This document shows positions 1 through 41,512 of a stretch of DNA of 41,512 nt, in pieces. Numbering within the stretch: the first letter of the stretch is position 1; the number at the start of each line of letters is the position of its first letter. This stretch comes from a virus. The notes under the pieces were generated by a model, which did not search any database, had not been told where the DNA came from, and saw only the letters and a program-made list of their open reading frames with translations. Made by a program: the position numbers and the translations under genes. Location: the UHGV virus genome UHGV-0155266; one strand, 5' to 3'.

Positions 1-49
1 ACAGTCGTGACACGACGCTGAAAGTTCCCAAACACACAGGAAACAGAAA

Positions 50-229
50 ATGAACGTGAATACTGAGATTTTGAAACTCTGGCAATCTAGGGGCGAAAAT
101 GAGCGCACCGGATTCGATGCGGAGAGGGTTGCAGATATTGCCTGGGAGCAGGGATTACAACTTCACCGCAACCGGCAGGAACATTACCAGCGAGTGATGT
201 ACCTCATAGGCCATCGCAATATCGGTTAA
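50..229 (+). CDS. small hypothetical protein (59 aa)
   Basis: ATG at 50 with AGGAAA 8 nt upstream, in-frame stop at 227-229, followed by a hairpin and T-run. Below the ORF-track length cutoff; no recognisable motif. Confidence 0.3.
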   Translation: MNVNTEILKLWQSRGENERTGFDAERVADIAWEQGLQLHRNRQEHYQRVMYLIGHRNIG

Positions 230-237
230 CTCATACA

Positions 238-258
238 GGCCGCGCATGCGGCCTTTTT
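238..258 (+). terminator. rho-independent terminator-like hairpin
   Basis: GGCCGC/GCGGCC stem (238-243 and 248-253) followed by TTTTT at 254-258; lies between the small ORF and the convergent 445-aa gene. Confidence 0.5.
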
Positions 259-1594
259 AGTCTGGATATTGAACATCTACTTCATTTTTTCTAATCTCTG
301 ATGAGATTTTTGAGCACGCTTTTATTAATTCATCCAAGACAATAGCGAGTTTGGCAAAATCATAATTGCTAAAACCCTTACTTCCTGGTTTTAGTTTCAT
401 GAATTTTTTCGTGTAATAGTCTTTATTTTCCAGCGCTCCTTGATAAGCATCACTTTCCTTTTTGTAATTTGACCACCGGATTTTCGCTTCATCATAATCA
501 GAAAATCTTAGATCCAGATAGCATTCAATCGCTACAGCCCGGCCATTGATGTTTTCATAGGTAACGCCGTGAGGACCAATAGCTGGAAATTGATTGAAAT
601 GAGGAAGATCAGGAAGATGAATGCAGCTAATATTGTGAGGCAATGCGAGTTTGCGGATTTTTTCATATGCCTCAATCCCTTCGCAATCATTATCTAACAC
701 GAAAACAATCAAGTTTTGAATGTCGATTTTTACGAGCCCAGCAGCGAACTTAACCAGATTTCCTGAACCAGTGAACGGGTACCCTTCACTCATGTCGATA
801 AAGTGAAAAAAATCTTCTACATCAGGCCGTAAGAGGTGCAATGCGTATTTGATGACGTTGGAGTCGGTGCTTCCCTCGGTGGCAATCAGGAACTTGTCAC
901 GTCTGCGAGCATTTACCTGAATATCTTTTATATTCGCATAACCAGCAGAAACTAGATCTCCGTAATCCCAAGTGACGAATTCATTATGATTATTTGGATT
1001 TTCGGCCAAAAGTCGCATCACTGAGTATGGATGTAGTATGCTAACTAAAGTCCCAAAAGCAGACTTTTCAGACCAAGCATTATCAAAGGCATTGTCGTAT
1101 TGGGGTATCCTGCTTAATAATTCATCATTATTAAATCGGCCCTTGATAAGCTCGCGTTCTTTTATTCTATCTTTTAAGCTAATATAATCATCGTTTAGCT
1201 CGCTAATATTTACGCTCTTGATGAAGTTAACGAATTCATCAAAGCTCATCATGTTACTAATTGGCTTTGCATATTCCGGACAGGATTCGTTAAATTCCTC
1301 TTGGTATTCAATTGAATCTTTAGCCATGAGTTCATACTCATAGCGTATATTTTCAAGGGTGAAACCCAACAATTCCAATCGGTAGGCAACTTGCCCCAAA
1401 GGCTTACGCAACACAGTACGACAGAGGATGCCATCAGGAGTGTCGAAGTCCTCTCCTTCCTCTATTTGATCTTCATTTAGTGGTTTGACGTGATGATCGG
1501 CACTTTGAAACAGGCCTCCATGATCTATACCCAGCGAGTTCTTACTCCAATCTAGCCCCACTCCTGACACTTCAAGAGAAATTACAGTACCCAT
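257..1594 (-). CDS. Toprim-domain protein with uncharacterised N-terminal half (candidate nuclease/defence effector)
   Basis: 445-aa ORF with AAGG upstream. Translation has EGxxD (LIATEGSTD, near aa 238-244) and DxDxxG (LDNDCEG, near aa 300-306) about 60 aa apart, the Toprim signature. No Walker A motif anywhere. Confidence 0.8.
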   Translation of the reverse strand: MGTVISLEVSGVGLDWSKNSLGIDHGGLFQSADHHVKPLNEDQIEEGEDFDTPDGILCRTVLRKPLGQVAYRLELLGFTLENIRYEYELMAKDSIEYQEEFNESCPEYAKPISNMMSFDEFVNFIKSVNISELNDDYISLKDRIKERELIKGRFNNDELLSRIPQYDNAFDNAWSEKSAFGTLVSILHPYSVMRLLAENPNNHNEFVTWDYGDLVSAGYANIKDIQVNARRRDKFLIATEGSTDSNVIKYALHLLRPDVEDFFHFIDMSEGYPFTGSGNLVKFAAGLVKIDIQNLIVFVLDNDCEGIEAYEKIRKLALPHNISCIHLPDLPHFNQFPAIGPHGVTYENINGRAVAIECYLDLRFSDYDEAKIRWSNYKKESDAYQGALENKDYYTKKFMKLKPGSKGFSNYDFAKLAIVLDELIKACSKISSEIRKNEVDVQYPD

Positions 1595-1975
1595 AGTTCA
1601 ACCTTTGAATGGCATTTTCCGTTGTACCGCAATACTACCAATACGCCGATTGGGCATCCATGATTTGAACTGGCTTCTATGCTCTATTTTTAGCAAATTG
1701 GACTTACGCCACCCTGGTTGCGTCTACTTCTCGCTCACAAGGAGCCCTCAGCAACGCTAGCTCGTCCGCGCCGTGCCAGAAGCGGACGTTGACAGCAACT
1801 CATAATGCAAATTTTCAGGGAGTGGATCGTCATGTACTGAATTGAGCCTAAGTTACAGATGATACTTGCTGTAAAAGCAGGAGAGGAATTATTTACTCTA
1901 TTGTGATAAGAGCGTTTTTATATTAATATCTTACATACAAATAGATATCTGAATAAACATTCAATAAGGTTCCAT

Positions 1976-2905
1976 ATGTCTGAAATAACTTCAGCTCCTG
2001 CTGTTATGGCGGCACTAGTATCTGCATTAGTTACGGTTTTATTATTTTTTATAAAAGGTGTATGCACACCTTTATGGAATAAATATTTCATTGTTTACAA
2101 AATCAAAGTTGAACATAGCTACGAACAAAAGAAGAAAATCAAAGAGGCGATATCAAAATATAAAATGCCTTTACTCGATTCAGCTGAGTCATTGAATCAT
2201 AGGTTGTGGAATTTTTCAGGAAATTGCACTAAAGGATGGCATAATTTCAAAAATAATGAATCAATTGGTGATAAATATTACCTACAAACTTTTTGTTATC
2301 GATTTTTAGCATTTTATGCTTGGTGTATAAAGTTCGAAAGAGAGTTGATATATTTAGATGTAACACTTTCAGAAAAGAACGATCTTTATTTTGTGAAGTA
2401 TATTAAAACCATGCAAAATATATTTTGCGATGCTTCGATGTTGAGTGGGACTGGTTATGATAATGAGCATGCTGTAGACCATTTTTTCAAGGATGACCTT
2501 ATTAGTATTGTGGAAAAAATGATTACACCTACAGGAGTTATTACTTATTCAGAATTCAAATCTAAATCAGAGTCTGAATTAGACTATACACAGGTTTGCA
2601 AGTACATATCCACCATAATGAGTGACAAATCTTGCAATAAATGGCATTTAATTAACTGTTTCCATTTTATCCTGATGGCCTTTTTGTCAAAGTATGGATA
2701 TGACTATCAAAGAACTGGGTTGTTTAAACTATATAAGCTGCGCTGCTCAGAACCTCAAAATAAGCTGATAAATAATTTTGAAAGGTTAGTATTCAATGCA
2801 AGATTAAATAAATGCAGAGAAATAAAGAAAGCAATAACTATTCTCGAATGCAAATCTAAAATTGCCAATCTCTGTAATTCCCTGAAATTAATAAAAGAGA
2901 ATTAG
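1976..2905 (+). CDS. hypothetical membrane-anchored protein (AT-rich accessory gene)
   Basis: 309-aa ORF with one hydrophobic N-terminal helix (PAVMAALVSALVTVLLFFI), Lys/Asn/Tyr/Cys-rich remainder, AT-rich codon usage; divergent from the Toprim gene. No HExxH, so not Lit. Confidence 0.7.
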   Translation: MSEITSAPAVMAALVSALVTVLLFFIKGVCTPLWNKYFIVYKIKVEHSYEQKKKIKEAISKYKMPLLDSAESLNHRLWNFSGNCTKGWHNFKNNESIGDKYYLQTFCYRFLAFYAWCIKFERELIYLDVTLSEKNDLYFVKYIKTMQNIFCDASMLSGTGYDNEHAVDHFFKDDLISIVEKMITPTGVITYSEFKSKSESELDYTQVCKYISTIMSDKSCNKWHLINCFHFILMAFLSKYGYDYQRTGLFKLYKLRCSEPQNKLINNFERLVFNARLNKCREIKKAITILECKSKIANLCNSLKLIKEN

Positions 2906-3034
2906 CTTGTGAAGCATAAAACTAGTTGTTCTGTACGATAGAAAATGAGAGAACCCAAGTCCGCATTGTGAATAGTGTTTGAGCTGAAAATATCGCTAAG
3001 ACCCTGAAAATTTTTTGGAGAAGCAGATTTTAAT

Positions 3035-3058
3035 GTCCGCTTCTCGCTCTAAGCGGAC
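3035..3058. terminator. bidirectional terminator-like hairpin between accessory gene and int
   Basis: GTCCGCTT/AAGCGGAC 8-bp stem with 8-nt loop, T-rich on both sides; sits between convergent genes ending at 2905 and 3119. Confidence 0.5.
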
Positions 3059-3118
3059 TGTTTGAAGCTTTTTCATGAGTGTTAAGAAAATCAAGATGGC
3101 GTTGAATCGCTTGAATTT

Positions 3119-4249
3119 TCACAAAGCTACTTTGCTCCAGCCTTTCCCACGGTCATCATGATAACGATCGGTTTGTTGCTGTGTTTTGTGACCAAGTAGT
3201 TTTTGTGTATCTAATCCCTGTTCCTTGTAAAGGCGTTCAGATAAAGATCGTTGCTCATGGAATGTGGCAGGTGAACCTTCCCCCCAGTTAATTTCTGCTA
3301 AATCTCTTGCTTTACTAAAATTCATCGTCAATGTATTGGATTTTACCTGTGCTCCACGTTCTGCCTGCGAAGTTGAACGGAAAAAATGCACTAAGTATGG
3401 GCTGACTGCATAGTCACGGCAGCGAGCTACTACATCACGTAAACTCCAGTTAATCGCATTGAGGCGAAGAGAAAGCGGAATTGCGATTTTGCTCCCTGTC
3501 TTTTCTTGTACGACATGAAGATGATCATCCCAAATATCGCTAAATTTCATACGTGAAATATCACCTAACCGCTGACCAGTAACCAAGGCTAGCAGCATGG
3601 CATTTCCCATGTAACGATGGCTGGCATCTGCGATATCGAATATTTTTTTCCATTCTTCGAGGCTCAGCCGTTGTCGGGTAATTTTTCTTCTTGGCTGTTT
3701 AGTAGCTAATGCAGGGTTATAGCCAGGAGGTACTTCTCCGTAGTGCTGCGCCTCTTTGAAAACATCAATCAGGACGGATCGAACTACTTGTGCCATTCTC
3801 GGTTGCCCAGCGGCAATATACTCATCAAGTAATTGTGCAATATCCCGGACATCAACAGCTGAAATTAGCTTCAATCCTGCCCGTTCTCTAAGTAAGGAGA
3901 CAGGTTTGGCTTTCTGCTTGTAGGTGTTGAGCTTTATATCACCACTTTTCAGCCTGTCATTCTGGATCGCTTGATAGCGATCTAACCAAGTTGACGTTGT
4001 GATTGCTTTCCCTTTGCTGGTTGCGATCCTGTCACTGATGGCCAGAATCTGCCGGGTTCTTTGTTCAGCCAGGCGCGTATTGGCTTCAGTGGCAATAGCG
4101 ATAGCTTCAGCTTCGTTTGTTCCCAAAGCATGGAATTTCCCTGTTATTGGATGCTTATACCGCCAATAGACTTTATTTACCTTTCGGCTATAAAGCGGAT
4201 ATAAGTTAGGGACTGAAACATTATTCTTACGCGGTCTGGCTGCCATCAC
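3119..4249 (-). CDS. int: tyrosine integrase (lambda Int family)
   Basis: 376-aa ORF with the lambda-integrase-like layout (N-terminal arm-binding region, C-terminal catalytic region ending with conserved His/Tyr context); overlaps xis 3' end. Start is GTG at 4249 or ATG at 4246. Confidence 0.9.
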   Translation of the reverse strand: MMAARPRKNNVSVPNLYPLYSRKVNKVYWRYKHPITGKFHALGTNEAEAIAIATEANTRLAEQRTRQILAISDRIATSKGKAITTSTWLDRYQAIQNDRLKSGDIKLNTYKQKAKPVSLLRERAGLKLISAVDVRDIAQLLDEYIAAGQPRMAQVVRSVLIDVFKEAQHYGEVPPGYNPALATKQPRRKITRQRLSLEEWKKIFDIADASHRYMGNAMLLALVTGQRLGDISRMKFSDIWDDHLHVVQEKTGSKIAIPLSLRLNAINWSLRDVVARCRDYAVSPYLVHFFRSTSQAERGAQVKSNTLTMNFSKARDLAEINWGEGSPATFHEQRSLSERLYKEQGLDTQKLLGHKTQQQTDRYHDDRGKGWSKVAL

Positions 4250-4472
4250 TCAAAATCCGTTGCAAAAGTAATGAGTCATTTTTCTTAATTACTGGTGTTA
4301 CCAGCTCTCCAACTAACTCGGCGTCCTCACGCACTCGCCATAACCGACCTTGTTTCATTGCCGGTGGACAAAACAAATTCTGCTTAGCATAACGACGCAA
4401 CGTGGAAACGCTTGGAGGATTACTTCTGTATTTTTCAGAAGCCCATTCTTCAAGAGTTAACATTTGAAGCAT
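4227..4472 (-). CDS. xis: excisionase (lambda Xis-like)
   Basis: 81-aa ORF immediately upstream of and overlapping int; TLEEW...RRYAKQNLFCPPAMKQGRLW resembles the lambda Xis winged-helix core; AAGGTG 7-8 nt before the ATG. Confidence 0.8.
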   Translation of the reverse strand: MLQMLTLEEWASEKYRSNPPSVSTLRRYAKQNLFCPPAMKQGRLWRVREDAELVGELVTPVIKKNDSLLLQRILSDGSQTA

Positions 4473-4965
4473 ATGCGATCACCTTATTACTTCAATAACT
4501 GTTCAGTCTCTGCGTATCGACCCTGCAAGGTCGGTTAGTTTCTCCACAAAACAGAGAAGAACACCTGCGATGACTGCCGCCTGGATGGATTGGGTTATGA
4601 GCCCGTCGTCCGGTGATGCTCTTCTCTGTTTTGTAAAAAGGATGGTACCAGCCGGAAGCAAGGGTACAAACTGGTACCGTCAAGACTACACACAGCATAA
4701 AGTTGTGGTTCCGGGTGCCTCCCGGTGCCTGGCGAAGGTTGCACACCAGACGGGTGGGTATCCACAGAAGGTCGACTGTCAGCCTCAACCTTAACCCGCG
4801 TGCGCTGAGCCGCATTCACCACAACGCTAAGGATTCTCTCTGGTTGAAAATACTTAGCTGTTATGTGCCTGCTTTTAGCCACATCAGGCGAGGTGGACCT
4901 GGTTATTCCCCAACAACAAGGATTCGGTTAATCTGGTTATCCCCAACAACGCAAAAGGAAAAGAA
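4473..4965. other. GC-rich structured non-coding segment (candidate ncRNA or cis-element)
   Basis: Four overlapping stop-free frames on both strands and no RBS-led protein-like ORF. Perfect 15-bp inverted repeat 4546-4560/4620-4634 with 59-nt loop; 8-bp inverted repeat 4644-4651/4671-4678; further short GC stems. Confidence 0.35.
4898..4950 (+). repeat. direct repeat pair CTGGTTAT(T)CCCCAACAAC upstream of ORF 4966
   Basis: cctggttattccccaacaac at 4898-4917 and tctggttatccccaacaac at 4932-4950, about 34 bp apart, just 5' of the ATG at 4966. Confidence 0.6.
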
Positions 4966-5400
4966 ATGTCCGGTAATATCTATACGCTGTACAAATCCCA
5001 CTGTGAAAATGTTGGAAAGTATCGGGGCATTGAAATCAGTGGGGTAGTGTCATCAGTCGAAATAAGCAAAGTTGAATCAAGGGCAACATTACTTACTCTT
5101 CTGGACCTTGTCTTACATGAGCACCGGAAGAAATTCGGCACTCCCTATAATCAGTTGAATGGGAAAAAAGCTCTGGTTCACCTTATTCTGATGAAGCATC
5201 ACTGGATGCCAAAACAGATTAATGAGATGAAATTTGATGAACTTCTTCTTTCAATTCAGGATGAACTCACGCTTGATAAAATAAGCGTAACCGCCCAGAA
5301 ATTTTTAGATTATCGAGACTGGAGATCACAAATTCATCACTTTGATGATTTTGACGAAAATGAATGGGATCCTAATTTGTCTGCACAATATCTAAAGTAA
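4966..5400 (+). CDS. hypothetical protein (144 aa)
   Basis: ORF with AAGGAAAAG before the ATG; protein-like composition; no recognisable motif. Confidence 0.6.
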   Translation: MSGNIYTLYKSHCENVGKYRGIEISGVVSSVEISKVESRATLLTLLDLVLHEHRKKFGTPYNQLNGKKALVHLILMKHHWMPKQINEMKFDELLLSIQDELTLDKISVTAQKFLDYRDWRSQIHHFDDFDENEWDPNLSAQYLK

Positions 5401-5578
5401 CATCCTGTGATAAAACCGTGATTTCCTGATCCAGTTTTTTTAAGGAGTCTATTGTTTCCTGTCGATAAGACAGCACTTCACGAAGCTGGTTTATAGCTGC
5501 CAGCTTCTTTGCCATCCACTCGTAAATTTCCTCATTTGTGTATCCGGGTGCGACGATTTTTGGTTCTGTTTTGTGCAT
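5372..5578 (-). CDS. small hypothetical protein (68 aa, predicted helical)
   Basis: ATG at 5578 preceded by GGAGG with a 6-nt spacer; convergent with ORF 4966-5400 and overlapping its 3' end by 29 bp. The track ORF starts at an upstream TTG (5593). Confidence 0.5.
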   Translation of the reverse strand: MHKTEPKIVAPGYTNEEIYEWMAKKLAAINQLREVLSYRQETIDSLKKLDQEITVLSQDVTLDIVQTN

Positions 5579-5637
5579 TTCACACCTCCTCAAGTTATCA
5601 GTTACTTGTTGATGGGGACCAGATTGTTAAAGAGCTA

Positions 5638-5660
5638 AGCGTCCTGTAGGGCGCTTTTTT
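5638..5660 (+). terminator. terminator-like hairpin
   Basis: AGCGTCC...GGGCGCT imperfect stem followed by TTTTTT at 5655-5660. Confidence 0.45.
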
Positions 5661-5843
5661 GTTGCTAACGAATCATCCTGGACTTCATATGCCCCAGGCG
5701 GCTACTTCGTGGGCGTCCTGCCTGTTCGTTGTTTTAACACCTTTAAGTTGTAATTTAGTTGTGGTTTTGAATGTTGTCAACAACTTTATGTGGTTTGAAC
5801 GAGTAGCCAAGGAGTGCAAGGATTATCAAAAAAAGGAGGTTGT

Positions 5844-6734
5844 ATGGAAGACGCGCTTTACGCTTTTAATTACACACAGAACCGGGACAAGTTATTTGCT
5901 AACTTGATTAGCATCATTGATGGAATCATTGCAGATGGAGTTGTCCGTGAAGAGGAGGTTCTTTACTTAGATACATGGTTACTTGAAGCAAAGCAGATTA
6001 TCAATAATGGAGTTATAAAAAGTCTATCAGCACGGGTGTCGGATATTCTTGCGGATGGAATAATCACATCAGAAGAACGTGATGACCTTAAAAATAGCCT
6101 TCTCCAAATACAGAGGGAAATTCTTGATATCCCTGAAATTGATTTTTACTCCAAGGATGTAGATGTCCATTTACTTAATGGACTATGTAAAGGATTAATT
6201 GCTGATCGGAACTTAACTCAAGAAGAAATAAGATATCTTAATTGGTGGCTTGAGCAAAATGGAGCTTTGAAGAACAACTACCCAGGAAAAAAACTTTATG
6301 CACTTGTAAAGGAAATTCTTAAAGATGGGGTTATTACTGAAGATGAGAGTTTAACTCTACATAAGGCATTAGTAGACTTCACAGGATGTGACTTGGAAAG
6401 TGGGGTGGTGGATGGTTTGGCGACCAGGCTGCCTATTGATGTAGGGGCTTCGATAGAGTTAGAGGGTAAAACCTATTGTCTTACAGGCACTTTTGTTGCA
6501 GGAAAGAGAGCCGTAGTTGAAAATTTGATTAAAAATGCTGGTGGGAACATCAGTAGTGGAATTACTCAAAAGTTGGATTTTTTAGTAATTGGGACGCTTT
6601 CCTCCCGTGATTGGAAATTCTCAAGTCACGGAAGGAAGATCGAAAAAGCTATATCTTATAGGGATGATAATGGTGCAAAACTTAAAATTATTTCTGAAGA
6701 AATGCTTTTCGATGCATTACCAAGTTCGCGATGA
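5844..6734 (+). CDS. BRCT-domain protein with four N-terminal tandem repeats
   Basis: ATG at 5844 after AGGAGG. C-terminus (GKTYCLTGTF...LDFLVIG...) follows the NAD-ligase-type BRCT pattern. N-terminus has four roughly 45-aa repeats sharing a D-G-[VI]-[VI]-T-x-[ED]-E motif. Confidence 0.75.
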   Translation: MEDALYAFNYTQNRDKLFANLISIIDGIIADGVVREEEVLYLDTWLLEAKQIINNGVIKSLSARVSDILADGIITSEERDDLKNSLLQIQREILDIPEIDFYSKDVDVHLLNGLCKGLIADRNLTQEEIRYLNWWLEQNGALKNNYPGKKLYALVKEILKDGVITEDESLTLHKALVDFTGCDLESGVVDGLATRLPIDVGASIELEGKTYCLTGTFVAGKRAVVENLIKNAGGNISSGITQKLDFLVIGTLSSRDWKFSSHGRKIEKAISYRDDNGAKLKIISEEMLFDALPSSR

Positions 6735-7403
6735 CCAGAATACCCTACCTATAACATGAATTCTGGCTCGTCTATCTTCAAAGGTGAGTATTTCATCTGG
6801 GTACTCATCTTTGTTGAAGCTTCTAAGAATCAAGCCACCGTCAGGTAAGTTGATAAGTATTTTAACCCTTAGCAATACACCATCTCGTACGGCATAAAGA
6901 TCGCCATCACGAATAGGAACGGTTTGAGAAATATCAACGGCAACAAGATCTCCATTATTGAGAACCGGTAATAAACTGTTCCCCCATATTTTTACGATCT
7001 TGGCATTAGATGCACATACGCCAGATTTTCTCAAATCTGCTCTTCTTAACGGAAACCAGTCAATAGCTGATTCAACTATTTCAGCCAGACATCCGTTACC
7101 TGCCGATAACTCGACATCTAAAACAGGAATGTTTACGAAAATATCGGGGTCTAATGCGGTGCTTTCTGCTTCTTTTACAACAAGATCAGGTATGGATGCG
7201 TTATCTTCAATACCAAGTTGTAACCACTTTTGTGATACACCTAAAACTTTTGCAATTTCTTTAATTTTGCGCGGTTGTAGAGTTTCGCCATTCTCTATTT
7301 TGGCTACAGATTGTTGTGAAAGTCCAATTTTTTCAGCTAGTTGAGCTTGGCTCATGCCAGCTTTCTCTCTACCTATCTTTAATCGTTCTGCCAGTGTTTT
7401 CAC
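6717..7403 (-). CDS. CI-like repressor (HTH_XRE plus S24 LexA-type peptidase)
   Basis: N-terminal HTH (MSQAQLAEKIGLSQQSVAKIENG) and C-terminal S24 autopeptidase region; GTG start at 7403 with GAGAGGG RBS; divergent from cro. Confidence 0.9.
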   Translation of the reverse strand: MKTLAERLKIGREKAGMSQAQLAEKIGLSQQSVAKIENGETLQPRKIKEIAKVLGVSQKWLQLGIEDNASIPDLVVKEAESTALDPDIFVNIPVLDVELSAGNGCLAEIVESAIDWFPLRRADLRKSGVCASNAKIVKIWGNSLLPVLNNGDLVAVDISQTVPIRDGDLYAVRDGVLLRVKILINLPDGGLILRSFNKDEYPDEILTFEDRRARIHVIGRVFWSSRTW

Positions 7404-7538
7404 AACATATCCCTCTCTTTTTTGATGAGGTTACAACTTTATGTTTTAGCTTTCCAACATCTAAAAGTTGTGATAAAAGTTGTTAATGTTGTATTCTTGC
7501 AACTCGTAACAACTTAACTACCAAAAAAGGAGAAAGCT
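7404..7538. promoter_or_regulatory. immunity-region operator/promoter block between cI and cro
   Basis: Five copies of the half-site ACAACTT/AAGTTGT in both orientations (near 7433, 7465, 7477, 7499, 7509) within a 135-bp divergent intergenic region; AAGGAG precedes cro. Confidence 0.6.
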
Positions 7539-7787
7539 ATGACACCTGAGCAATTAGCCTTATCGGAGGCAATCGCTCTGGCTGGTGGTCAATCAGAATT
7601 GGCTCGGAAGCTCACAGCCAGCAGCGGTCATTTAGTAAAGCAACAACATGTCTGGAACTGGTTGAACAGAGAAAAGCGTCCCCCTGCAAAGCTCTCGATA
7701 TTCATTGAAAAGACCACTGGCATATCAAAAGAAAAATTACGTCCAGATATTTTTCAAAAGATTAAAGATTCATCAGATGAAAAGTAA
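7539..7787 (+). CDS. Cro/YdaS-like HTH regulator
   Basis: 82-aa ORF divergent from cI, strong RBS, HTH segment GQSELARKL; position and size fit a Cro-type protein. Confidence 0.75.
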   Translation: MTPEQLALSEAIALAGGQSELARKLTASSGHLVKQQHVWNWLNREKRPPAKLSIFIEKTTGISKEKLRPDIFQKIKDSSDEK

Positions 7788-7809
7788 CCACAGTTTTAAG
7801 GAGATAGCC

Positions 7810-8367
7810 GTGGGTAAGCATCACTGGAAAATAGAAAAACAGCCTGAGTGGTACGTGAAAGCTGTCAGAAAAACTATCGCGGCGTTGCCGGGTGGTTACG
7901 CTGAAGCCGCTGACTGGCTGGATGTAACAGAGAACGCTTTATTCAACCGCCTTCGTGCAGATGGCGATCAGATTTTTCCGCTGGGATGGGCAATGGTTTT
8001 ACAGCGTGCTGGTGGCACTCACTTCATTGCTGATGCTGTGGCGCAGTCTGCAAATGGCGTATTTGTGTCTCTTCCTGACGTCGAGGATGTGGACAACGCC
8101 GATATTAACCAGCGTCTGCTGGAAGTCATTGAACAGATCGGCAGTTATTCAAAACAGATTCGTTCAGCAATCGAAGACGGTGTAGTGGAACCGCATGAGA
8201 AGACAGCAATTAACGACGAGCTGTATCTCTCAATTTCGAAGCTGCAGGAGCATGCAGCACTGGTCTACAAAATCTTTTGCATTTCAGAAAGTAATGACGC
8301 CCGCGAGTGTGCAGCTCCGGGCGTCGTGGCGTCGATTGCTTCTGGTTGTGGAGAAACTAACGCATGA
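7810..8367 (+). CDS. CII/YmfL-like early regulatory protein
   Basis: ORF directly after cro. GTG at 7810 has AAGGAG 7 nt upstream; an in-frame ATG at 7777 is the alternative start. Assignment by position and recalled similarity to e14 ymfL. Confidence 0.5.
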
Positions 8368-8702
8368 ACAGTTTAACAACACACTACCGTCGCTCGCAAC
8401 TGATTGCGCTTCCTGTACCGGGTGGAAAAGCGAAGGTGGAATATTGCTATGCAGTGAATGTACCAGGTGACAGGGAAATTGTAACCCACAGCTTTGCAGA
8501 GTGGGCTGTGGGTGATTTCAACCGGCAGAAGGAGACAGTCCTTTGCGACAAGTTAACCGCTGGTTCAAAGATCACTACGGAGTGCCCGTCAGAGTCATTC
8601 GTTGGGAGCCGGAAACACAACGGGTTATCTACCTCCGCGAAGGTTATGAGCATGAATGCTTCAGTCCGCTCGAACAGTTTCGTCGTAAATTCAGGGAAAT
8701 AG
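8364..8702 (+). CDS. hypothetical early protein (YmfM-like, 112 aa)
   Basis: Start overlaps the upstream stop. The C-terminal third looks non-protein-like while an alternative frame (8516-8719) looks protein-like; see findings. Confidence 0.45.
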
Positions 8703-8711
8703 AGGTCGGTC

Positions 8712-9653
8712 ATGAGCACTAAATTAACCGGCTATGTATGGGATGGTTGCGCTGCATCAGGCATGAAGTTATCCAGTGTGGCAATTATGGCCCGCCTGGC
8801 TGATTTCAGTAATGACGAAGGTGTGTGCTGGCCATCAATTGAAACCATTGCCCGTCAGATTGGCGCGGGGATGAGTACCGTCAGAACGGCTATCGCACGG
8901 CTGGAAGCAGAAGGCTGGTTAACGCGTAAGGCGCGTCGCCAGGGTAACCGCAATGCGTCGAATGTTTATCAGCTTAACGTTGCGAAGCTTCAGGCAGCGG
9001 CATTTTCTCAACTGTCAGATTCTGACCCGTCAAAATCTGACGCATCAAAATCTGACCCGTCAAAATTTGATGCGTCGAAATCTGGCAAAAAAGCGGGTTT
9101 TCACCCGTCAGAATCTGGCGGGGATCCGTCAGTAAAATCAAAACATGATCCGTCAGATAAAAAAACTTCTCGTCCGGACGCTTCGCAACCGGACACGCAG
9201 ACGGCTGAACAGGAGTTTTTAACTCGCCATCCTGATGCGGTTGTATTCAGCCCTAAAAAGCGCCAGTGGGGAACGCAGGATGATTTGACCTGTGCACAGT
9301 GGCTCTGGAAAAAAATCATCGCCCTGTACGAGCAGGCCGCCGAATGTGACGGCGAGGTGGTTCGTCCCAAAGAACCGAACTGGACAGCCTGGGCAAACGA
9401 AATTCGCCTGATGTGTGTGCAGGATAGTCGTACTCACAAACAAATCTGCGAGATGTACAGCCGCGTCAGCCGCGATCCGTTCTGGTGCCGTAACGTGCTC
9501 AGCCCGTCGAAGCTGCGGGAAAAATGGGATGAGCTTTCCCTGCGCTTATCGCCGTCCGTCAGCACGTACACCGAAAAACGCGAAGACCCGTACTTCAAAT
9601 CCAGTTACGACAACGTGGACTACAGCCAGATCCCGGCAGGATTCAGGGGGTGA
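8712..9653 (+). CDS. replication initiation protein (phage O-like replisome organiser)
   Basis: N-terminal HTH typical of phage replication initiators; internal five-residue peptide repeats (SDPSK/SDASK) are encoded by 15-bp DNA iterons, as in lambda O containing ori. Confidence 0.7.
   Translation: MSTKLTGYVWDGCAASGMKLSSVAIMARLADFSNDEGVCWPSIETIARQIGAGMSTVRTAIARLEAEGWLTRKARRQGNRNASNVYQLNVAKLQAAAFSQLSDSDPSKSDASKSDPSKFDASKSGKKAGFHPSESGGDPSVKSKHDPSDKKTSRPDASQPDTQTAEQEFLTRHPDAVVFSPKKRQWGTQDDLTCAQWLWKKIIALYEQAAECDGEVVRPKEPNWTAWANEIRLMCVQDSRTHKQICEMYSRVSRDPFWCRNVLSPSKLREKWDELSLRLSPSVSTYTEKREDPYFKSSYDNVDYSQIPAGFRG
9021..9085 (+). repeat. iteron array (putative phage origin) inside the replication gene
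   Basis: Tandem 15-bp units TCTGACCCGTCAAAA, TCTGACGCATCAAAA, TCTGACCCGTCAAAA, TTTGATGCGTCGAAA; further CCGTCAG copies and an A-rich tract follow to about 9170. Confidence 0.6.
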
Positions 9654-10144
9654 TCATGAGTCTGTTAAATGACGTTCAGAAATTCATTGAAGCTCATCCG
9701 GGGTGTACTTCCGGAGACATTGCAGATGCTTTTGCTGGTTACTCACGGCAGCGCGTTCTGCAGTCAGCAAGCAAGTTACGTCAGAGTGGGCGTGTGGCTC
9801 ACCGTTGTGAAGGGGATACACGCAGACATTTCCCGCGCCTGACTGAGAGAGCGCAGGAGCCGGAACCACAACCAGTTCGTGAAACCAGACCTGTGCGCAA
9901 TTTCTATGTCGGCACTAACGACCCCCGGGTGATTTTGTGCCTGACCCGCCAGGCTGAAGAACTGGAGTCCAGGGGCTTATACCGTCGTGCTGCAACGGTG
10001 TGGATGGCGGCATTCCGTGAAAGCCACTCCCAGCCAGAACGAAATAATTTTCTGGCGCGTCGTGAACGGTGTTTACGGAAAAGCAACAAGCGGGCTGCAT
10101 CAGGTGAAGAGTGGTATCTGTCAGGGAATTACGTGGGGGCTTAA
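9650..10144 (+). CDS. early protein, possible PerC/ANR-type regulator
   Basis: 164-aa ORF translationally coupled to the replication gene; the AEELESRGLYRRAATVWMAAF segment resembles the PerC-family motif as recalled. Inference only. Confidence 0.5.
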   Translation: MIMSLLNDVQKFIEAHPGCTSGDIADAFAGYSRQRVLQSASKLRQSGRVAHRCEGDTRRHFPRLTERAQEPEPQPVRETRPVRNFYVGTNDPRVILCLTRQAEELESRGLYRRAATVWMAAFRESHSQPERNNFLARRERCLRKSNKRAASGEEWYLSGNYVGA

Positions 10145-10797
10145 TGAGTAATAAATATTGCCGGGCGCTGGTGGAGCTGCGGAACAAACCAGCCCATGAA
10201 CTGAAGGAAGTGGGCGATCAGTGGCGCACGCCGGATAACATTTTCTGGGGAATTAACACCCTGTTTGGTCCGTTTGTTCTGGATCTGTTCACTGACGGTG
10301 ATAACGCCAAATGTGCCGCGTATTACACGGCGGAAGACAACGCGCTGGCACATGACTGGTCAGAACGTCTTGCGGAGCTTAAAGGTGCTGCCTTTGGTAA
10401 TCCCCCATACAGCCGCGCCAGTCAGCATGAGGGGCAATACATCACCGGCATGCGTTACATCATGAAGCATGCCAGTGCCATGCGTGATAAAGGCGGTCGC
10501 TATGTTTTCCTGATCAAAGCTGCCACCAGCGAAGTGTGGTGGCCGGAAGATGCAGATCATATTGCTTTTATTCGCGGGCGTATTGGTTTTGAACTGCCTG
10601 CCTGGTTTATCCCGAAGGATGAGAAGCAGGTGCCGACAGGCGCTTTCTTCGCTGGTGCTATTGCTGTTTTCGACAAGACCTGGAAGGGACCGGCAATCAG
10701 CTACATCGGGCGCGATGAACTTGAGGCATGTGGTGAGGCCTTTCTGGCGCAGGTTCGCCAGCAGGCGGAAAAACTGGTCAGGGAGATGGCTGCATGA
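10144..10797 (+). CDS. phage N6-adenine DNA methyltransferase (Dam-like)
   Basis: ATG at 10144 overlaps the upstream stop (TAATG). Contains GNPPY, matching the (D/N)PPY catalytic motif of N6-adenine methyltransferases. Confidence 0.8.
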   Translation: MSNKYCRALVELRNKPAHELKEVGDQWRTPDNIFWGINTLFGPFVLDLFTDGDNAKCAAYYTAEDNALAHDWSERLAELKGAAFGNPPYSRASQHEGQYITGMRYIMKHASAMRDKGGRYVFLIKAATSEVWWPEDADHIAFIRGRIGFELPAWFIPKDEKQVPTGAFFAGAIAVFDKTWKGPAISYIGRDELEACGEAFLAQVRQQAEKLVREMAA

Positions 10798-11120
10798 CGA
10801 CGTTAACTCAATGCCAGCAGCAGGTGCTGGATATGCTGATTTCTTACCAGAAAGAACGTGGCTTCCCGCCAACCAATCAGGAGGTGGCAACCATGCTGGG
10901 ATACCGTTCAGTGAATGCAGCGGTGGAGCATCTTCGAGCACTGGAGAAAAAAGGCGTCATCACGATAAAGCGTGGAGTGGCCCGGGGGATAACGCTTCAT
11001 ACCGCGATGAAGGACGACGACAGCGAGGCGGTCGGGATTATCCGCGCACTGCTTGCCGGTGAGGCAAACGCCAGGCTGCGTGCAGCCCACTGGTTACATG
11101 AGAGGGGCCTGAAAGTATGA
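10794..11120 (+). CDS. LexA-N-terminal-like DNA-binding protein
   Basis: 108-aa ORF; TQCQQQVLDMLISYQKERGFPPTNQEVATMLGYRSVNAAVEHLRALEKKGVI resembles the LexA DNA-binding domain; start overlaps the Dam stop. Confidence 0.55.
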   Translation: MTTLTQCQQQVLDMLISYQKERGFPPTNQEVATMLGYRSVNAAVEHLRALEKKGVITIKRGVARGITLHTAMKDDDSEAVGIIRALLAGEANARLRAAHWLHERGLKV

Positions 11121-11506
11121 AGCTAATACTGCCTTTTCCGCCCAGCGTGAACACGTACTGGCGACACCCCAACAAAGGGGCGTTTGCAGGTAAGAGCCTG
11201 ATAAGCGCGGCGGGGCGCAAATTCCAGAGCGCGGCGTGTGCAGCAATAGTTGAGCAGTTACGTCGTCTGCCAAAACCAACGTCGGCACCTGCTTCAGTGG
11301 AGATCGTGTTGTTTCCTCCGGATAACCGGATCCGCGATCTGGACAACTATAACAAGGCGCTGTTTGACGCCCTGACCCACGCGGGTGTGTGGGAAGACGA
11401 CAGTCAGGTGAAAAGAATGCTGGTGGAGTGGGGACCGGTTATCCCGGAAGGGAAGGTCGAGATCACTATAAGTAAGTACGAGAAAACGGCGGGTGCAGCC
11501 GCCTGA
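11117..11506 (+). CDS. rusA: RusA-type Holliday junction resolvase
   Basis: 129-aa ORF; size and conserved acidic pattern (DLDNYNKALFDALTHAGVWEDDSQV) match the RusA family. Confidence 0.85.
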   Translation: MKLILPFPPSVNTYWRHPNKGAFAGKSLISAAGRKFQSAACAAIVEQLRRLPKPTSAPASVEIVLFPPDNRIRDLDNYNKALFDALTHAGVWEDDSQVKRMLVEWGPVIPEGKVEITISKYEKTAGAAA

Positions 11507-11525
11507 TTAAGAGGAGAAACGAAGT

Positions 11526-12335
11526 ATGAATAATCTGATGGTCATTGATGGTATTGAAGTTCGTCGTGATGCTTATGGGCGTTACAGTCTGAACGATCTG
11601 CATCGCGCAGCAGTAGCATCTGGTGCAAATGCCAGAACCAAGGAGCCAGGAAAGTTTCTTTCCAGCCAACAAACTGTTGAGCTTGTTCATGAATTGACCA
11701 ACACCCAGAATTTGGGTGTTGACCCGGTGAGTGTGATTCATGGGGGAAATGAACGGGGAACGTATGTCTGCAAGGAACTGGTGTATGCCTATGCAATGTG
11801 GATCAGCCCGTCATTCCATCTGAAGGTGATCCGTACTTTCGACATGGTAACCAGCGCACCGGAAAAATTATCCGGACAGGCTGCTGACAAGATGCAGGCT
11901 GGTGTGATTCTGCTGGACTTTATGCGCCGGGAATTAAACCTGTCTAACTCTTCAGTGCTTGGTGCCTGTCAGAAACTCCAGGAGGCTGTTGGCTTACCGA
12001 ATCTGGCACCGCGCTATGCCATTGATGCTCCTGCTGACGCGCCTGATGGCTCAAGCCGCCCCACGCTGTCACTGAGTGCACTGCTGAAGCAGTATGGTAT
12101 CCGCCTGACAGCTAATCAGGCATATCACCAGATGGTGAAGCTGGGGATCGTCGAGCAGCGCGAACGATACAGCCGTACCGCGATTAACAACATCAAAAAA
12201 TTCTGGTCGCTGACAGCGAAAGGCTGCATGTTCGGCAAGAACATCACCAGTCCCGCAAATCCGCGCGAGACGCAGCCGCATTTCTTCGAATCCCGATTCC
12301 CCGAGCTGTTAAAGTTGCTCGATACCGTTCATTGA
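11526..12335 (+). CDS. KilA-N domain protein
   Basis: The N-terminal 100 aa match the KilA-N DNA-binding domain pattern; AAGAGGAG RBS. Confidence 0.7.
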   Translation: MNNLMVIDGIEVRRDAYGRYSLNDLHRAAVASGANARTKEPGKFLSSQQTVELVHELTNTQNLGVDPVSVIHGGNERGTYVCKELVYAYAMWISPSFHLKVIRTFDMVTSAPEKLSGQAADKMQAGVILLDFMRRELNLSNSSVLGACQKLQEAVGLPNLAPRYAIDAPADAPDGSSRPTLSLSALLKQYGIRLTANQAYHQMVKLGIVEQRERYSRTAINNIKKFWSLTAKGCMFGKNITSPANPRETQPHFFESRFPELLKLLDTVH

Positions 12336-36895: not shown

Positions 36896-37558
36896 ATGCA
36901 TCGTATAGACACGAAAACCGCGCAGAAGGATAAGTTCGGCGCGGGTAAGAACGGTTTTACCCGTGGTAACCCCCAGACCGGCACGCCTGCCACCGATCTG
37001 GATGATGACTACTTTGACATGTTGCAGGAGGAGCTTTGCAGCGTTGTGGAGGCGTCCGGTGCCAGCCTGGAGAAGGGGCGGCACGACCAGCTACTTACCG
37101 CGCTTCGCGCGCTGCTGTTAAGCCGCAAGAATCCGTTTGGCGATATCAAATCGGATGGCACGGTGAAAACGGCTCTCGAAAACCTTGGTTTGGGAGAAGC
37201 GGCAAAACGGAATGTGGGGACAGGGGAAAATCAGATACCGGACATGGCCTCTTTTGCCAGTGGTGATGGATGGATGAAATTACCCAACGGTAAAATTCTG
37301 CAATATGGTCGAGGCGAGGCTATGCCGAAATTATCGACGCAAACAATGAGGATTACATTTCCTATCCCTTTCCCTAAAAAAGCGGACTGCGCCATTCTTA
37401 CCCATTCTGGTGATGGCGGTGCGCCTTTAGGCGCTGGGCGAGGGTTCGTGATGACTGCAGAAGGCCCTACGTTAACCGGCTTTAATTCTGCTTACAGAAC
37501 GTCATCAACCAGTGACACGGTATCTATGCATTACAGTTGGTGGGCTGTTGGTGAGTAA
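36896..37558 (+). CDS. tail fibre protein (constant N-terminus plus currently expressed variable C-terminus)
   Basis: 220-aa ORF; the constant part ends at GLGE, encoded across the left inversion site near 37185; the C-terminal 124 aa lie inside the invertible segment. Confidence 0.75.
37173..37198. repeat. left Pin recombination site (gix/pix-like)
   Basis: ctctcgaaaaccttggtttgggagaa; its 3' 14 nt are identical to the reverse complement of 39064-39077. Confidence 0.6.
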
Positions 37559-38596: not shown

Positions 38597-39076
38597 TATG
38601 CAGCCCTCACGATAAAATTAAATGCAATATTTCGTGGACGGGTTTCATTCCCGCCAGTATTACCGATACTCCCTCGTGAATGAAGTGTCGGTGATGGGAT
38701 CAGACTCCCTCCTGTATTTGTGGCATCAAGTCCCCGTCCTTGTGTGTATGTCTTTTTGAAAATCGTAGCCAGTTCCCATTCATCTTTTGTGTCGTAACCA
38801 TCATTTGCAACAACAATATGGCGGTGTTTTTCCAGCATCCCTGTCTGAATGCTCAATAAAACACGTCCTGCATCAATACCGCGCCCGTCATCCCAGCCAC
38901 GAATAAACTCACCGCGTAAATCAGGTAATTTATTTGTTGGATAAGCCTTTGCCAGTTCCGGGTATTCTTCAGCAGAAAATGCCGCACCGTTGCATTTCAG
39001 CCAGCCTGTTGGCGGTGTGGCTGAAGGCCATGGAACAGGCACACCAACAGGTAATGCAGAGCCTTCTCCCAAACCA
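38596..39076 (-). CDS. alternative tail fibre variable C-terminus (silent until inversion)
   Basis: Minus-strand frame encoding ...NVGLGEGSALP... and a Gly-rich fibre tip; it shares the GLGE junction with the expressed fibre at the inversion site and has no start codon of its own. Confidence 0.65.
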
Positions 39077-39089
39077 ACGTTTATGAAAA
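39064..39089. repeat. right Pin recombination site (gix/pix-like)
   Basis: ttctcccaaaccaacgtttatgaaaa, inverted relative to 37173-37198. Confidence 0.6.
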
Positions 39090-39143
39090 TGCAGAAATAA
39101 CGAGCAAATGGCATCATTCCTGCTTTTGTCAGGGGGATCTACC

Positions 39144-39698
39144 ATGCTTATTGGCTATGTACGCGTATCAACAAATGACCAGAACACAGATCTACAACGT
39201 AATGCGCTGAACTGTGCAGGATGTGAGCTGATTTTTGAAGACAAGATAAGCGGTACAAAGTCCGAAAGGCCGGGACTGAAAAAACTGCTCAGGACATTAT
39301 CGGCAGGTGACACGCTGGTGGTCTGGAAACTGGACCGGCTGGGGCGCAGTATGCGGCATCTTGTCGTGCTGGTGGAGGAGTTGCGCGAACGAGGCATCAA
39401 CTTTCGTAGTCTGACGGATTCAATTGATACCAGTACCCCAATGGGGCGCTTTTTCTTTCATGTGATGGGTGCCCTGGCTGAAATGGAGCGTGAACTGATT
39501 GTTGAAAGAACAAAAGCTGGACTGGAAGCTGCTCGCGCACAGGGACGAATTGGTGGACGTCGTCCCAAACTTACACCAGAACAATGGGAACAGGCCGGAC
39601 GATTAATTGCATCAGGAGTTCCTCGCCAGAAGGTGGCGATTATCTATGATGTTGGTGTGTCAACTTTGTATAAGAGGTTTCCTGCAGGGGATAAATAA
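39144..39698 (+). CDS. pin: DNA invertase Pin (serine recombinase, Gin/Hin/Pin family)
   Basis: MLIGYVRVSTNDQ N-terminus with the catalytic Ser, resolvase domain and C-terminal HTH; closely matches e14 PinE as recalled; adjacent to the invertible segment. Confidence 0.9.
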   Translation: MLIGYVRVSTNDQNTDLQRNALNCAGCELIFEDKISGTKSERPGLKKLLRTLSAGDTLVVWKLDRLGRSMRHLVVLVEELRERGINFRSLTDSIDTSTPMGRFFFHVMGALAEMERELIVERTKAGLEAARAQGRIGGRRPKLTPEQWEQAGRLIASGVPRQKVAIIYDVGVSTLYKRFPAGDK

Positions 39699-39804
39699 AG
39701 TTAAAGACACTTTTTGTACAAAAGAGAATAAAACAACAGCAACTTGTTGCAATTTTATCAATAAAAGTAGTATTGTCGTGAAAAATTGATTAAAGATTAA
39801 TATT

Positions 39805-40638
39805 ATGCATGTTTTTGATAATAATGGAATTGAACTGAAAGCTGAGTGTTCGATAGGTGAAGAGGATGGTGTTTATGGTCTAATCCTTGAGTCGTGGGGG
39901 CCGGGTGACAGAAACAAAGATTACAATATCGCTCTTGATTATATCATTGAACGGTTGGTTGATTCTGGTGTATCCCAAGTCGTAGTATATCTGGCGTCAT
40001 CATCAGTCAGAAAACATATGCATTCTTTGGATGAAAGAAAAATCCATCCTGGTGAATATTTTACTTTGATTGGTAATAGCCCCCGCGATATACGCTTGAA
40101 GATGTGTGGTTATCAGGCTTATTTTAGTCGTACGGGGAGAAAGGAAATTCCTTCCGGCAATAGAACGAAACGAATATTGATAAATGTCCCAGGTATTTAT
40201 AGTGACAGTTTTTGGGCGTCTATAATACGTGGAGAACTATCAGAGCTTTCACAGCCTACAGATGATGAATCGCTTCTGAATATGAGGGTTAGTAAATTAA
40301 TTAAGAAAACGTTGAGTCAACCCGAGGGCTCCAGGAAACCAGTTGAGGTAGAAAGACTACAAAAAGTTTATGTCCGAGACCCGATGGTAAAAGCTTGGAT
40401 TTTACAGCAAAGTAAAGGTATATGTGAAAACTGTGGTAAAAATGCTCCGTTTTATTTAAATGATGGAAACCCATATTTGGAAGTGCATCATGTAATTCCC
40501 CTGTCTTCAGGTGGTGCTGATACAACAGATAACTGTGTTGCCCTTTGTCCGAATTGCCATAGAGAATTGCACTATAGTAAAAATGCAAAAGAACTAATCG
40601 AGATGCTTTACGTTAATATAAACCGATTACAGAAATAA
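39805..40638 (+). CDS. mcrA: McrA-like modified-cytosine restriction endonuclease (HNH)
   Basis: 277-aa protein with a C-terminal HNH motif (HHVIPLSSGGADTTDNCVALCPNCH); sequence and position (after pin at the e14 right end) match E. coli McrA as recalled. Confidence 0.85.
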   Translation: MHVFDNNGIELKAECSIGEEDGVYGLILESWGPGDRNKDYNIALDYIIERLVDSGVSQVVVYLASSSVRKHMHSLDERKIHPGEYFTLIGNSPRDIRLKMCGYQAYFSRTGRKEIPSGNRTKRILINVPGIYSDSFWASIIRGELSELSQPTDDESLLNMRVSKLIKKTLSQPEGSRKPVEVERLQKVYVRDPMVKAWILQQSKGICENCGKNAPFYLNDGNPYLEVHHVIPLSSGGADTTDNCVALCPNCHRELHYSKNAKELIEMLYVNINRLQK

Positions 40639-40869
40639 AATTATTTATTAAAGTCACATTTAAGACGTAATACCCTACAGGGTAAAAATTTTCTCTGATC
40701 TTAACTTCTGCAAATGTTAACTGCTATTTTTATGCTAAAAATGGTTATCAAAACTCAAAAACACATGTTTATAATCAATGAGTTATAGAAATGCTAAGGG
40801 CTAATGAGTTATATGCAAATTAGTAAAATTATGTTGCTATGTCAAATAGTTACGATTTAGTCATCTAAC

Positions 40870-41035
40870 TAATGTTACGCCATATGGGCTGGACTGAAGC
40901 CGCAGACTTGATTGTTAAAGGTATGGAAGGCGCAATCAATGCGAAGACCGTAACCTATGATTTCGAACGTCTGATGGAAGGTGCTAAACTGCTGAAATGC
41001 AGCGAGTTTGGTGATGCGATCATCAAGAACATGTA
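40870..41035 (+). pseudogene. icdC: displaced 3' fragment of icd (attR)
   Basis: In-frame translation ...[55 protein letters not shown] matches the Icd C-terminus with no upstream gene body; homology begins near 40870. Confidence 0.8.
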
Positions 41036-41058
41036 ATTACTACATGTGTTAAATATTG

Positions 41059-41090
41059 TAACGGGCGTATAACACGCCCGTTGTTTTATT
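41059..41090 (+). terminator. rho-independent terminator (icd terminator)
   Basis: 9-bp stem AACGGGCGT/ACGCCCGTT with loop ATAAC, followed by a T-rich run. Confidence 0.6.
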
Positions 41091-41138
41091 TATGTGGATA
41101 TTATTAATATCATGTCGAGAATATTTATATGAAGGCCA

Positions 41139-41462
41139 TTACTTGAGTCCATATGGGCATATTTTTATAATACAACTATTATGTAAACATTTATTTGTTA
41201 TTTCGCTTTCTCCTGGAGGACACTCTTGACTGCTTTTGAGTAAACTCCATAAATTCTTGTTGAATGGTGCAATGTTATAAATAGTAATAGGATATTCTTT
41301 ATCCTCAAGGATAATACCAGGCTTAACCGGTGTAAATATACTTCCAGGAGGAAGAAATATAGTAGATTGATACCAGATGATCATTTTCATATCACCCCAT
41401 ATGGCTGAAAAAGATATGCCGCATGTAGGTTGAATTACCGTGTCAATTACTACCCACTTCAT
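41139..41462 (-). CDS. iraM: anti-adaptor protein IraM-like (host flank)
   Basis: 107-aa ORF with an AT-rich gene body; closely resembles E. coli IraM as recalled (MKW(V/I)VIDTVIQP...ICPYGLK); lies outside the prophage. Confidence 0.7.
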
Positions 41463-41512
41463 TTGTTATGTCTTATCCCACGGTATTTAATATAGTTCAT
41501 TTGGATGTTCAT

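Follow-up and report, generated by a model that had tools for sequence, protein, structure and literature searches.

The right end of the 41,512-nt window analysed here (the whole stretch of DNA, virus genome UHGV-0155266) carries a restriction gene next to a fragment of the host gene icd, and raises the question of whether mcrA is prophage cargo, which of two icd 3' ends belongs to the host, and how complete the element is. With a probability of about 95%, the region 39805-41090 is the right end (attR) of a full-length prophage of roughly 41.4 kb, a temperate member of the e14 family inserted at the 3' end of icd in a non-K-12 strain of E. coli.

For e14, the order pin-mcrA-attR-icdC and the rebuilding of icd by a phage 3' end have been known since the late 1980s and belong to standard annotation. 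An intact mcrA followed by the displaced host end of icd is a textbook e14-family right end, already known, and our interpretation adds nothing new to the published e14 biology that it restates (PMC4444293, PMC6379469, PMC13626634). The value of the analysis lies in a clean annotation, with 40871/40872 as the right boundary and 40872-40888 as the att core. The right end is laid out as follows.

39144..39698, plus strand: pinE, the serine DNA invertase of the tail-fibre P segment; Pfam Resolvase (E 1.5e-51) and HTH_7
39699..39804, plus strand: pin-mcrA spacer, 106 nt, AT-rich; presumed mcrA promoter region
39805..40638, plus strand: mcrA, a 277-aa ORF; type IV (modification-dependent) restriction endonuclease
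40639..40871, plus strand: phage arm of attR (P-arm equivalent), 233 nt, AT-rich, non-coding
40872..40888, plus strand: att core region, the 17-bp block ATGTTACGCCATATGGG, the same in attL and attR
40872..41036, plus strand: icdC-like remnant, 165 nt, the displaced last 54 codons and stop of the host icd
41058..41084, plus strand: native icd intrinsic terminator, an 11-bp stem followed by a T-run
41139..41462, minus strand: iraM (NCBIfam PRK09919, anti-adapter IraM, E 3.9e-50), the nearest host gene on the right of the prophage

The sequence-only reading had placed mcrA between pin and an icd 3' fragment, and the ORFs of pinE (39144-39698), mcrA and the fragment (40872-41036) agree with this order. 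It had identified the fragment correctly, but its coordinates of 40870-41035 were 1-2 nt off, and its end coordinate of 41090 for the region includes the native icd terminator. With regard to the genes themselves, pinE is the final gene of the phage structural module ahead of the cargo and differs from K-12 pinE at 19 of 555 nt. In the spacer, which differs from K-12 at 3 of its 106 nt, the GC content drops from about 0.5 to 0.35. A promoter scan upstream of mcrA returned weak sigma-70-like matches (39778-39806, 39797-39825), at a frequency no higher than in shuffled sequence, and an Rfam scan of 39000-41512 gave no match near any gathering score. The GC content of mcrA is 0.35-0.41, compared with 0.55-0.60 in the tail genes, and the gene is a low-GC moron lying just inside attR.

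The assignment of mcrA to an HNH restriction enzyme gene, as the sequence-only reading had it, was borne out: the protein is K-12 McrA, and structures and the PADLOC model agree on this. All 277 residues are identical to the product of the K-12 MG1655 gene, from which the nucleotide sequence differs at two synonymous positions (2/834 nt). PDB entry 6GHC (EcoKMcrA) matches across the full length (E 2.9e-190), entries 6R64, 6T21 and 6T22, which cover the N-terminal domain, match residues 1-143 (E 2.5e-94), and the PADLOC model mREase_IV (PDLC03656) covers residues 1-277 of 277 (E 6.5e-203). The C-terminal HNH (beta-beta-alpha-Me) nuclease with its Cys4 zinc site is present (Pfam HNH, residues 207-256, E 3.5e-15), its residues being those of 6GHC in that region, and so is the N-terminal modified-cytosine recognition domain (NEco, residues 1-143). 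The alignment with 6GHC takes in all residues, those of the HNH/zinc motif and of the N-terminal 5mC/5hmC reader among them. The one difference from 6GHC, at position 194 (K versus E), is peculiar to the crystallised construct, as the K-12 genomic allele is the same as that of the window.

The mcrA gene is known to reside on e14, and its product, which combines an N-terminal reader with an HNH domain, restricts C5mCGG- or m5CG-methylated DNA as well as T-even phage containing non-glucosylated hmC; the reader domain binds modified DNA, and cleavage by the HNH domain is Mn2+-dependent (PMC12707154, PMC2847215). EcoKMcrA is a dimeric type IV enzyme in which the N-terminal domain reads 5-methyl- or 5-hydroxymethyl-cytosine and the HNH domain cuts the DNA, and a lysogen is predicted to restrict incoming 5mC-methylated DNA and non-glucosylated hmC T-even phage. 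Since it does not differ from the characterised protein in any residue, the window McrA is expected to have this activity too, and it is presumably expressed and active in the source strain, judging from the 100% identity. An allele of the active type would be relevant when the source strain is transformed or infected with DNA containing 5mC or 5hmC. The gene is not always maintained, since mcrA is frameshifted in some relatives (strain elppa4).

The prophage also encodes two orphan-looking DNA methyltransferases, one of the Dam-type N6A family (PF05869, 10111-10797) and one of the N6_N4_Mtase family (PF01555, 15309-16361). The phage's own methyltransferases were considered as a source of McrA substrates and rejected, because they are of the N6A and N6/N4 types. 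As neither is a C5-cytosine enzyme, both are compatible with the carriage of mcrA.

The position of the junction follows from the icd remnant and its surroundings. The 54-aa ORF at 40872..41036 matches the C-terminus of Pfam Iso_dh (profile positions 301-348 of 348), and its peptide has the same sequence as the C-terminus of Icd in strains without the prophage. Three such strains were compared (MINF_7C, E. coli B and O104:H4 2011C-3493), and each has icd, the terminator and iraM directly contiguous, without mcrA. The alignment that had been proposed as a check, of the fragment with icd of prophage-free strains, showed that it aligns to the icd 3' end and passes directly into the native terminator and iraM. 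To the right of 40872 the window is continuous with the prophage-free strains, and to the left with the K-12 e14 arm. On the phage side (39699-40871), 6 mismatches to K-12 e14 were counted in 1173 nt, against 18 in the 165 nt that follow; because of this jump in mismatches, the phage/host boundary is placed at 40871/40872.

The same 165 nt bear on the origin of the remnant. Compared with native icd ends, the fragment has 7-9 mismatches in 165 positions; compared with the phage-borne ones in K-12 and PS1Thumoskin9, it has 18-21. The window terminator is that of prophage-free strains and differs from the phage-borne terminator copy. Furthermore, window positions 40872-41512 match the attR-iraM stretch of E. 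coli strain 1190 at all 641 nt (100% identity), an agreement which, at this length, is not a matter of chance. Given the native-type mismatch counts and the identity with the attR flank of strain 1190, the remnant is the displaced host end. The earlier claim of a host-derived remnant therefore stands, as the fragment is collinear with native icd, terminator and iraM and closer to native than to phage-borne ends.

One could suppose the reverse assignment, in which 40872-41036 came with the phage and the host 3' end is still part of the intact icd. In this lineage the peptide encoded by the two copies is the same, so the protein alone does not decide between them, and the attL of strain 1190 is largely host-like. 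However, the fragment runs unbroken into the native terminator and iraM, as it does in prophage-free strains; after the stop, 3-4 of 60 nt differ from native sequence and 21-22 of 60 from phage-borne sequence; and the attL on contig L010, described below, has a divergent phage-type end followed by phage DNA. We regard the reversed assignment as refuted by the continuity with terminator and iraM, the mismatch counts and the L010 attL, and give it hardly any credence.

In strain 1190, the rebuilt icd 3' end at attL (locus L003, 41462-41700) is a mosaic, mostly host-like and including a native-type terminator, then giving way to phage sequence. This mosaic suggests gene conversion or recombination between both icd 3' copies. 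Host and phage copies of icd can be blurred by gene conversion, as icd 3' ends are mosaic in some lysogens.

Similarly, mcrA could be taken not for prophage cargo but for a gene that belongs to the chromosome around icd and iraM, since host DNA is no more than 233 nt away and the gene's base composition is unlike that of the remaining phage. Nevertheless, it is missing from the prophage-free strains, where iraM directly follows icd, and it is located on the phage side of the att junction, in DNA that is 99.5% identical to K-12 e14, whereas the host side is ~89-93% identical. It has also been reported that mcrA is lost together with e14 at excision (PMC4444293). A chromosomal origin is the least probable of the alternatives considered here, and mcrA is best read as prophage cargo.

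If the remnant is the displaced host end, a rebuilt icd is to be expected at the prophage's opposite end. A direct-repeat search for a second icd copy within the window found none, attL being off-window. An exact look-up of the HEPN/Toprim protein encoded at the left end yielded seven distinct public contig contexts, and in all seven a full 416-aa icd (Iso_dh gene) lies just past the identical left-end gene. Among them, contig L010 (Logan SRR30909830) corresponds to window positions 1-11594 with 0 mismatches. Its icd is intact (416 aa), with the stop ending 350 nt to the left of window position 1. The last ~148 nt of this icd, its stop (TGA) and its terminator are of the phage type and are followed by phage DNA, and in its last 165 nt there are 18 mismatches to attR. 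The sequence-only reading had held that integration rebuilt icd with a phage-borne 3' end outside the window; this is what was seen on contig L010, and the intact second icd upstream that it called for was likewise found on this identical contig rather than in the window itself.

When attL of L010, attR and native attB were aligned, a 17-bp block (40872-40888) was found to be shared by both prophage ends. The block is also present in strain PS1Thumoskin9, and K-12 has an 11-bp block at the same site. As attL and attR share the 17-bp block, strand exchange must fall within 40872-40888, and the core-to-core distance (515 + 40,871) gives a prophage of ~41.4 kb.

These data best support the following course of integration. 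The phage attP would lie between mcrA on one side and, on the other, the icd 3' copy brought by the phage (the last ~165 nt and the terminator), and IntE, a tyrosine recombinase of the lambda type with an arm-binding domain, would exchange strands inside the 17-bp block, where the duplicated segment has its 5' edge. The phage copy would then complete icd at attL, 350-515 nt to the left of the window, while the host's own 3' end would stay at attR, together with its terminator and iraM, as a promoterless remnant. Integration would leave icd functional because the phage brings its own icd 3' end and terminator beside attP. In K-12, excision of e14 fuses icd back to the icdC remnant (PMC4444293, PMC13626634, PMC6379469).

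A search of a phage collection for a virion genome with mcrA beside attP returned ON470584.1 (locus L015, Escherichia phage vB_EcoM-689R6) as the only full match. It was rejected as a source of attP, as host genes are present. The record contains icd, rluE, nudJ, mnmA and hflD together with an odd placement of pin and mcrA, and represents an extract of a prophage region and no virion genome.

The left end of the window carries the integration module that works on this attR and, between attL and int, cargo at the position that is occupied by ymfD-ymfE-lit in K-12.

257-1594, minus strand: HEPN/Toprim-N protein, 445 aa; Pfam HEPN_Toprim_N PF18871, E 1.7e-48
1976-2905, plus strand: 309-aa protein without a family match
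3119-4249, minus strand: intE; Pfam Arm-DNA-bind_1 and Phage_integrase
4227-4472, minus strand: xisE; RefSeq names intE and xisE on identical DNA

The window IntE shows 97% amino acid identity to K-12 IntE and 92% to that of strain 1190. The attP was reconstructed from the window arm and the L010 sequence to the right of the core. In the arm on the mcrA side, the motif GTTATCAAAA lies at -128 from the core (40744-40753), its only exact copy in the 41.5-kb window, and GAGTTAT occurs at 40780-40786 (-92) and at 40806-40812 (-66). In the off-window arm on L010, three tandem GTTATCAAAA-like sites are located at +233, +244 and +257, right after the phage-borne icd terminator. The arm of strain 1190 is unrelated (31% ungapped identity), yet it has GTTATCAAAA at -127 and GAGTTAT at -91 (L003, 2384-2393 and 2349-2355). 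We refer to GTTATCAAAA and GAGTTAT as putative Int arm-type sites, to which Int presumably binds. Their layout resembles that of the P and P' arm-type sites of lambda and fits an Int with an Arm-DNA-binding domain. The window prophage is probably competent for excision.

With regard to completeness, the window ORFs for int, xis, the repressor, replication, lysis, terminase, head, sheath, tube, baseplate, tail fibre, pin and mcrA are all open, and no IS elements were found in the window. A complete set of head, tail, lysis and regulation genes is present both in the window and in annotated relatives. The window thus apparently holds a complete 41-kb relative of the K-12 e14 remnant. Among 5,426 complete E. 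coli genomes, 328 cover at least 80% of the mcrA-icdC-iraM junction, and the best junction match among these genomes is 98.6% identical and has a frameshifted mcrA.

This bears on the possibility that the element is itself a decayed, immobile remnant like K-12 e14, with a fossil mcrA-icdC junction and a gene that may be silent. Several relatives point in this direction: K-12 e14 is defective and measures 15.2 kb (PMC6379469), the relative in PS1Thumoskin9 has IS3 insertions and deletions, the capsid gene in strain 1190 has an internal stop, and both mcrA and pinE are frameshifted in elppa4. In the window, by contrast, the phage ORFs are open from int through mcrA, the putative Int sites are kept in both arms, and the mcrA ORF encodes the same protein as the active K-12 allele. 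Moreover, excision and McrA expression are known even from K-12 e14, defective as it is (PMC4444293, PMC13626634). Decay is therefore an unlikely account of this prophage, albeit one that deserves clearly more weight than a reversed junction or a chromosomal mcrA, and the reading of a full-length temperate prophage is retained.

The claim that the element carries defence cargo at both ends holds in part. McrA is a characterised restriction enzyme, but both left-end proteins gave no PADLOC match (E <= 0.01) and no NCBIfam match, the one family match being to Pfam HEPN_Toprim_N, a domain of the kind seen in conflict systems. On the basis of domain type and position, they are predicted as defence candidates. 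The label "defence" for these genes is a prediction only and calls for caution in annotation. At the position of this left-end cargo (257-2905), ON470584.1 has a DUF262/NsnA-like gene.

The attR-proximal slot itself (window 39699-40871) was found to vary among E. coli lysogens. In strain 1190 and 53 others (54/5,426), it encodes a GmrSD-family enzyme of 629 aa (L003, 2270-5000); the enzyme of strain 1190 matches Pfam GmrSD_N and GmrSD_C as well as PADLOC mREase_IV (E = 0). In WCHEC035125 and 288 others (289/5,426), a McrBC-like pair of an AAA_5 ATPase and McrC takes this place (L018, 1227-4996). These counts, like the 328 genomes with mcrA in the slot, are junction-similarity hits uncorrected for clonality, with a handful of loci inspected. 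Four sampled strains have sitABCD, which is no defence system, in the slot (L016, L017, L019 and L020, ~600-4990).

A second type of attR arm is common to the McrBC-like and sitABCD prophages, at 80% identity, and its icd junction lies 3 nt further to the right.

L018 4990-5010, L016 4990-5010 and L020 4985-5005: second-type icd junction, …TATATACTG|TTACGCCA…

Evidently, two different integration systems use the same icd site. An e14-type element with McrBC-like cargo was considered and rejected, because the attR arm is of the other type, common to the sitABCD prophages. The second arm type is probably a phage-21-type system acting on the same attB (PMC12803456).

Three of the four cargo types at the slot are type IV (modification-dependent) nucleases. 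Defence hotspots at prophage ends are an established concept, with which alternative type IV nucleases at one slot are in keeping (PMC9122126). We tentatively raise the idea, which we consider rather doubtful at present, that the attR-proximal slot at icd is a hotspot preferentially filled by unrelated families of type IV nucleases, across two integrase/att-arm types. If so, icd phages would specialise in shielding the bacteria that harbour them from T-even-like phages with hypermodified cytosine. In e14-type elements, exchange of the cargo and of almost the entire arm may be possible while the arm-site motifs stay at -128/-92.

Three further observations concern other parts of the window. Inverted repeats of 20 nt (37180-37199 and 39063-39082), 95% complementary and 1,863 nt apart, lie inside two opposed tail-fibre genes and are the crossover sites of a Pin-invertible P segment, as in K-12 e14; inversion of the P segment has been reported to block T2 adsorption (PMC12529663). 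Inside a gene resembling a replication initiator (8712-9653), five to six tandem 15-nt repeats (TCAAAATCTGACCCG-like, 9000-9122) resemble origin iterons that are part of a coding sequence, as they are in lambda O. Finally, a 306-aa BRCT-domain protein (5814-6734, plus strand) adjoins a CI-like repressor (6717-7403, minus strand); its gene may be a further moron, and PADLOC gave it a weak match to PDC-S48, a candidate system (E 2.7e-7).

The closest known system is e14 of K-12. The two elements share the gene order pinE-mcrA-attR-icdC-iraM, an identical McrA protein, the same integration point in icd and, as the remnant, the same 165-nt segment of the icd 3' end; their attR arms (40639-40871 in the window) differ at 1 of 233 nt (99.6% identity). 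In contrast, K-12 e14 comprises 15.2 kb, whereas the window prophage comprises ~41.4 kb with a full morphogenesis set of the myovirus type. At the left end, K-12 has ymfD-ymfE-lit in place of the HEPN/Toprim-N and 309-aa proteins, and its att identity block is 11 bp long rather than 17 bp. The host side (icdC, iraM) is ~89-93% identical, and the host lineage accordingly differs from K-12.

Other icd prophages, among them those of the phage 21 / NC-SV type, use the same attB and resemble the window prophage in that they, too, enter icd at its 3' end, restore the gene and leave behind a remnant beside iraM (PMC12803456). They differ in having an unrelated attR arm, a junction 3 nt further right, and sitABCD or the McrBC-like pair instead of mcrA.
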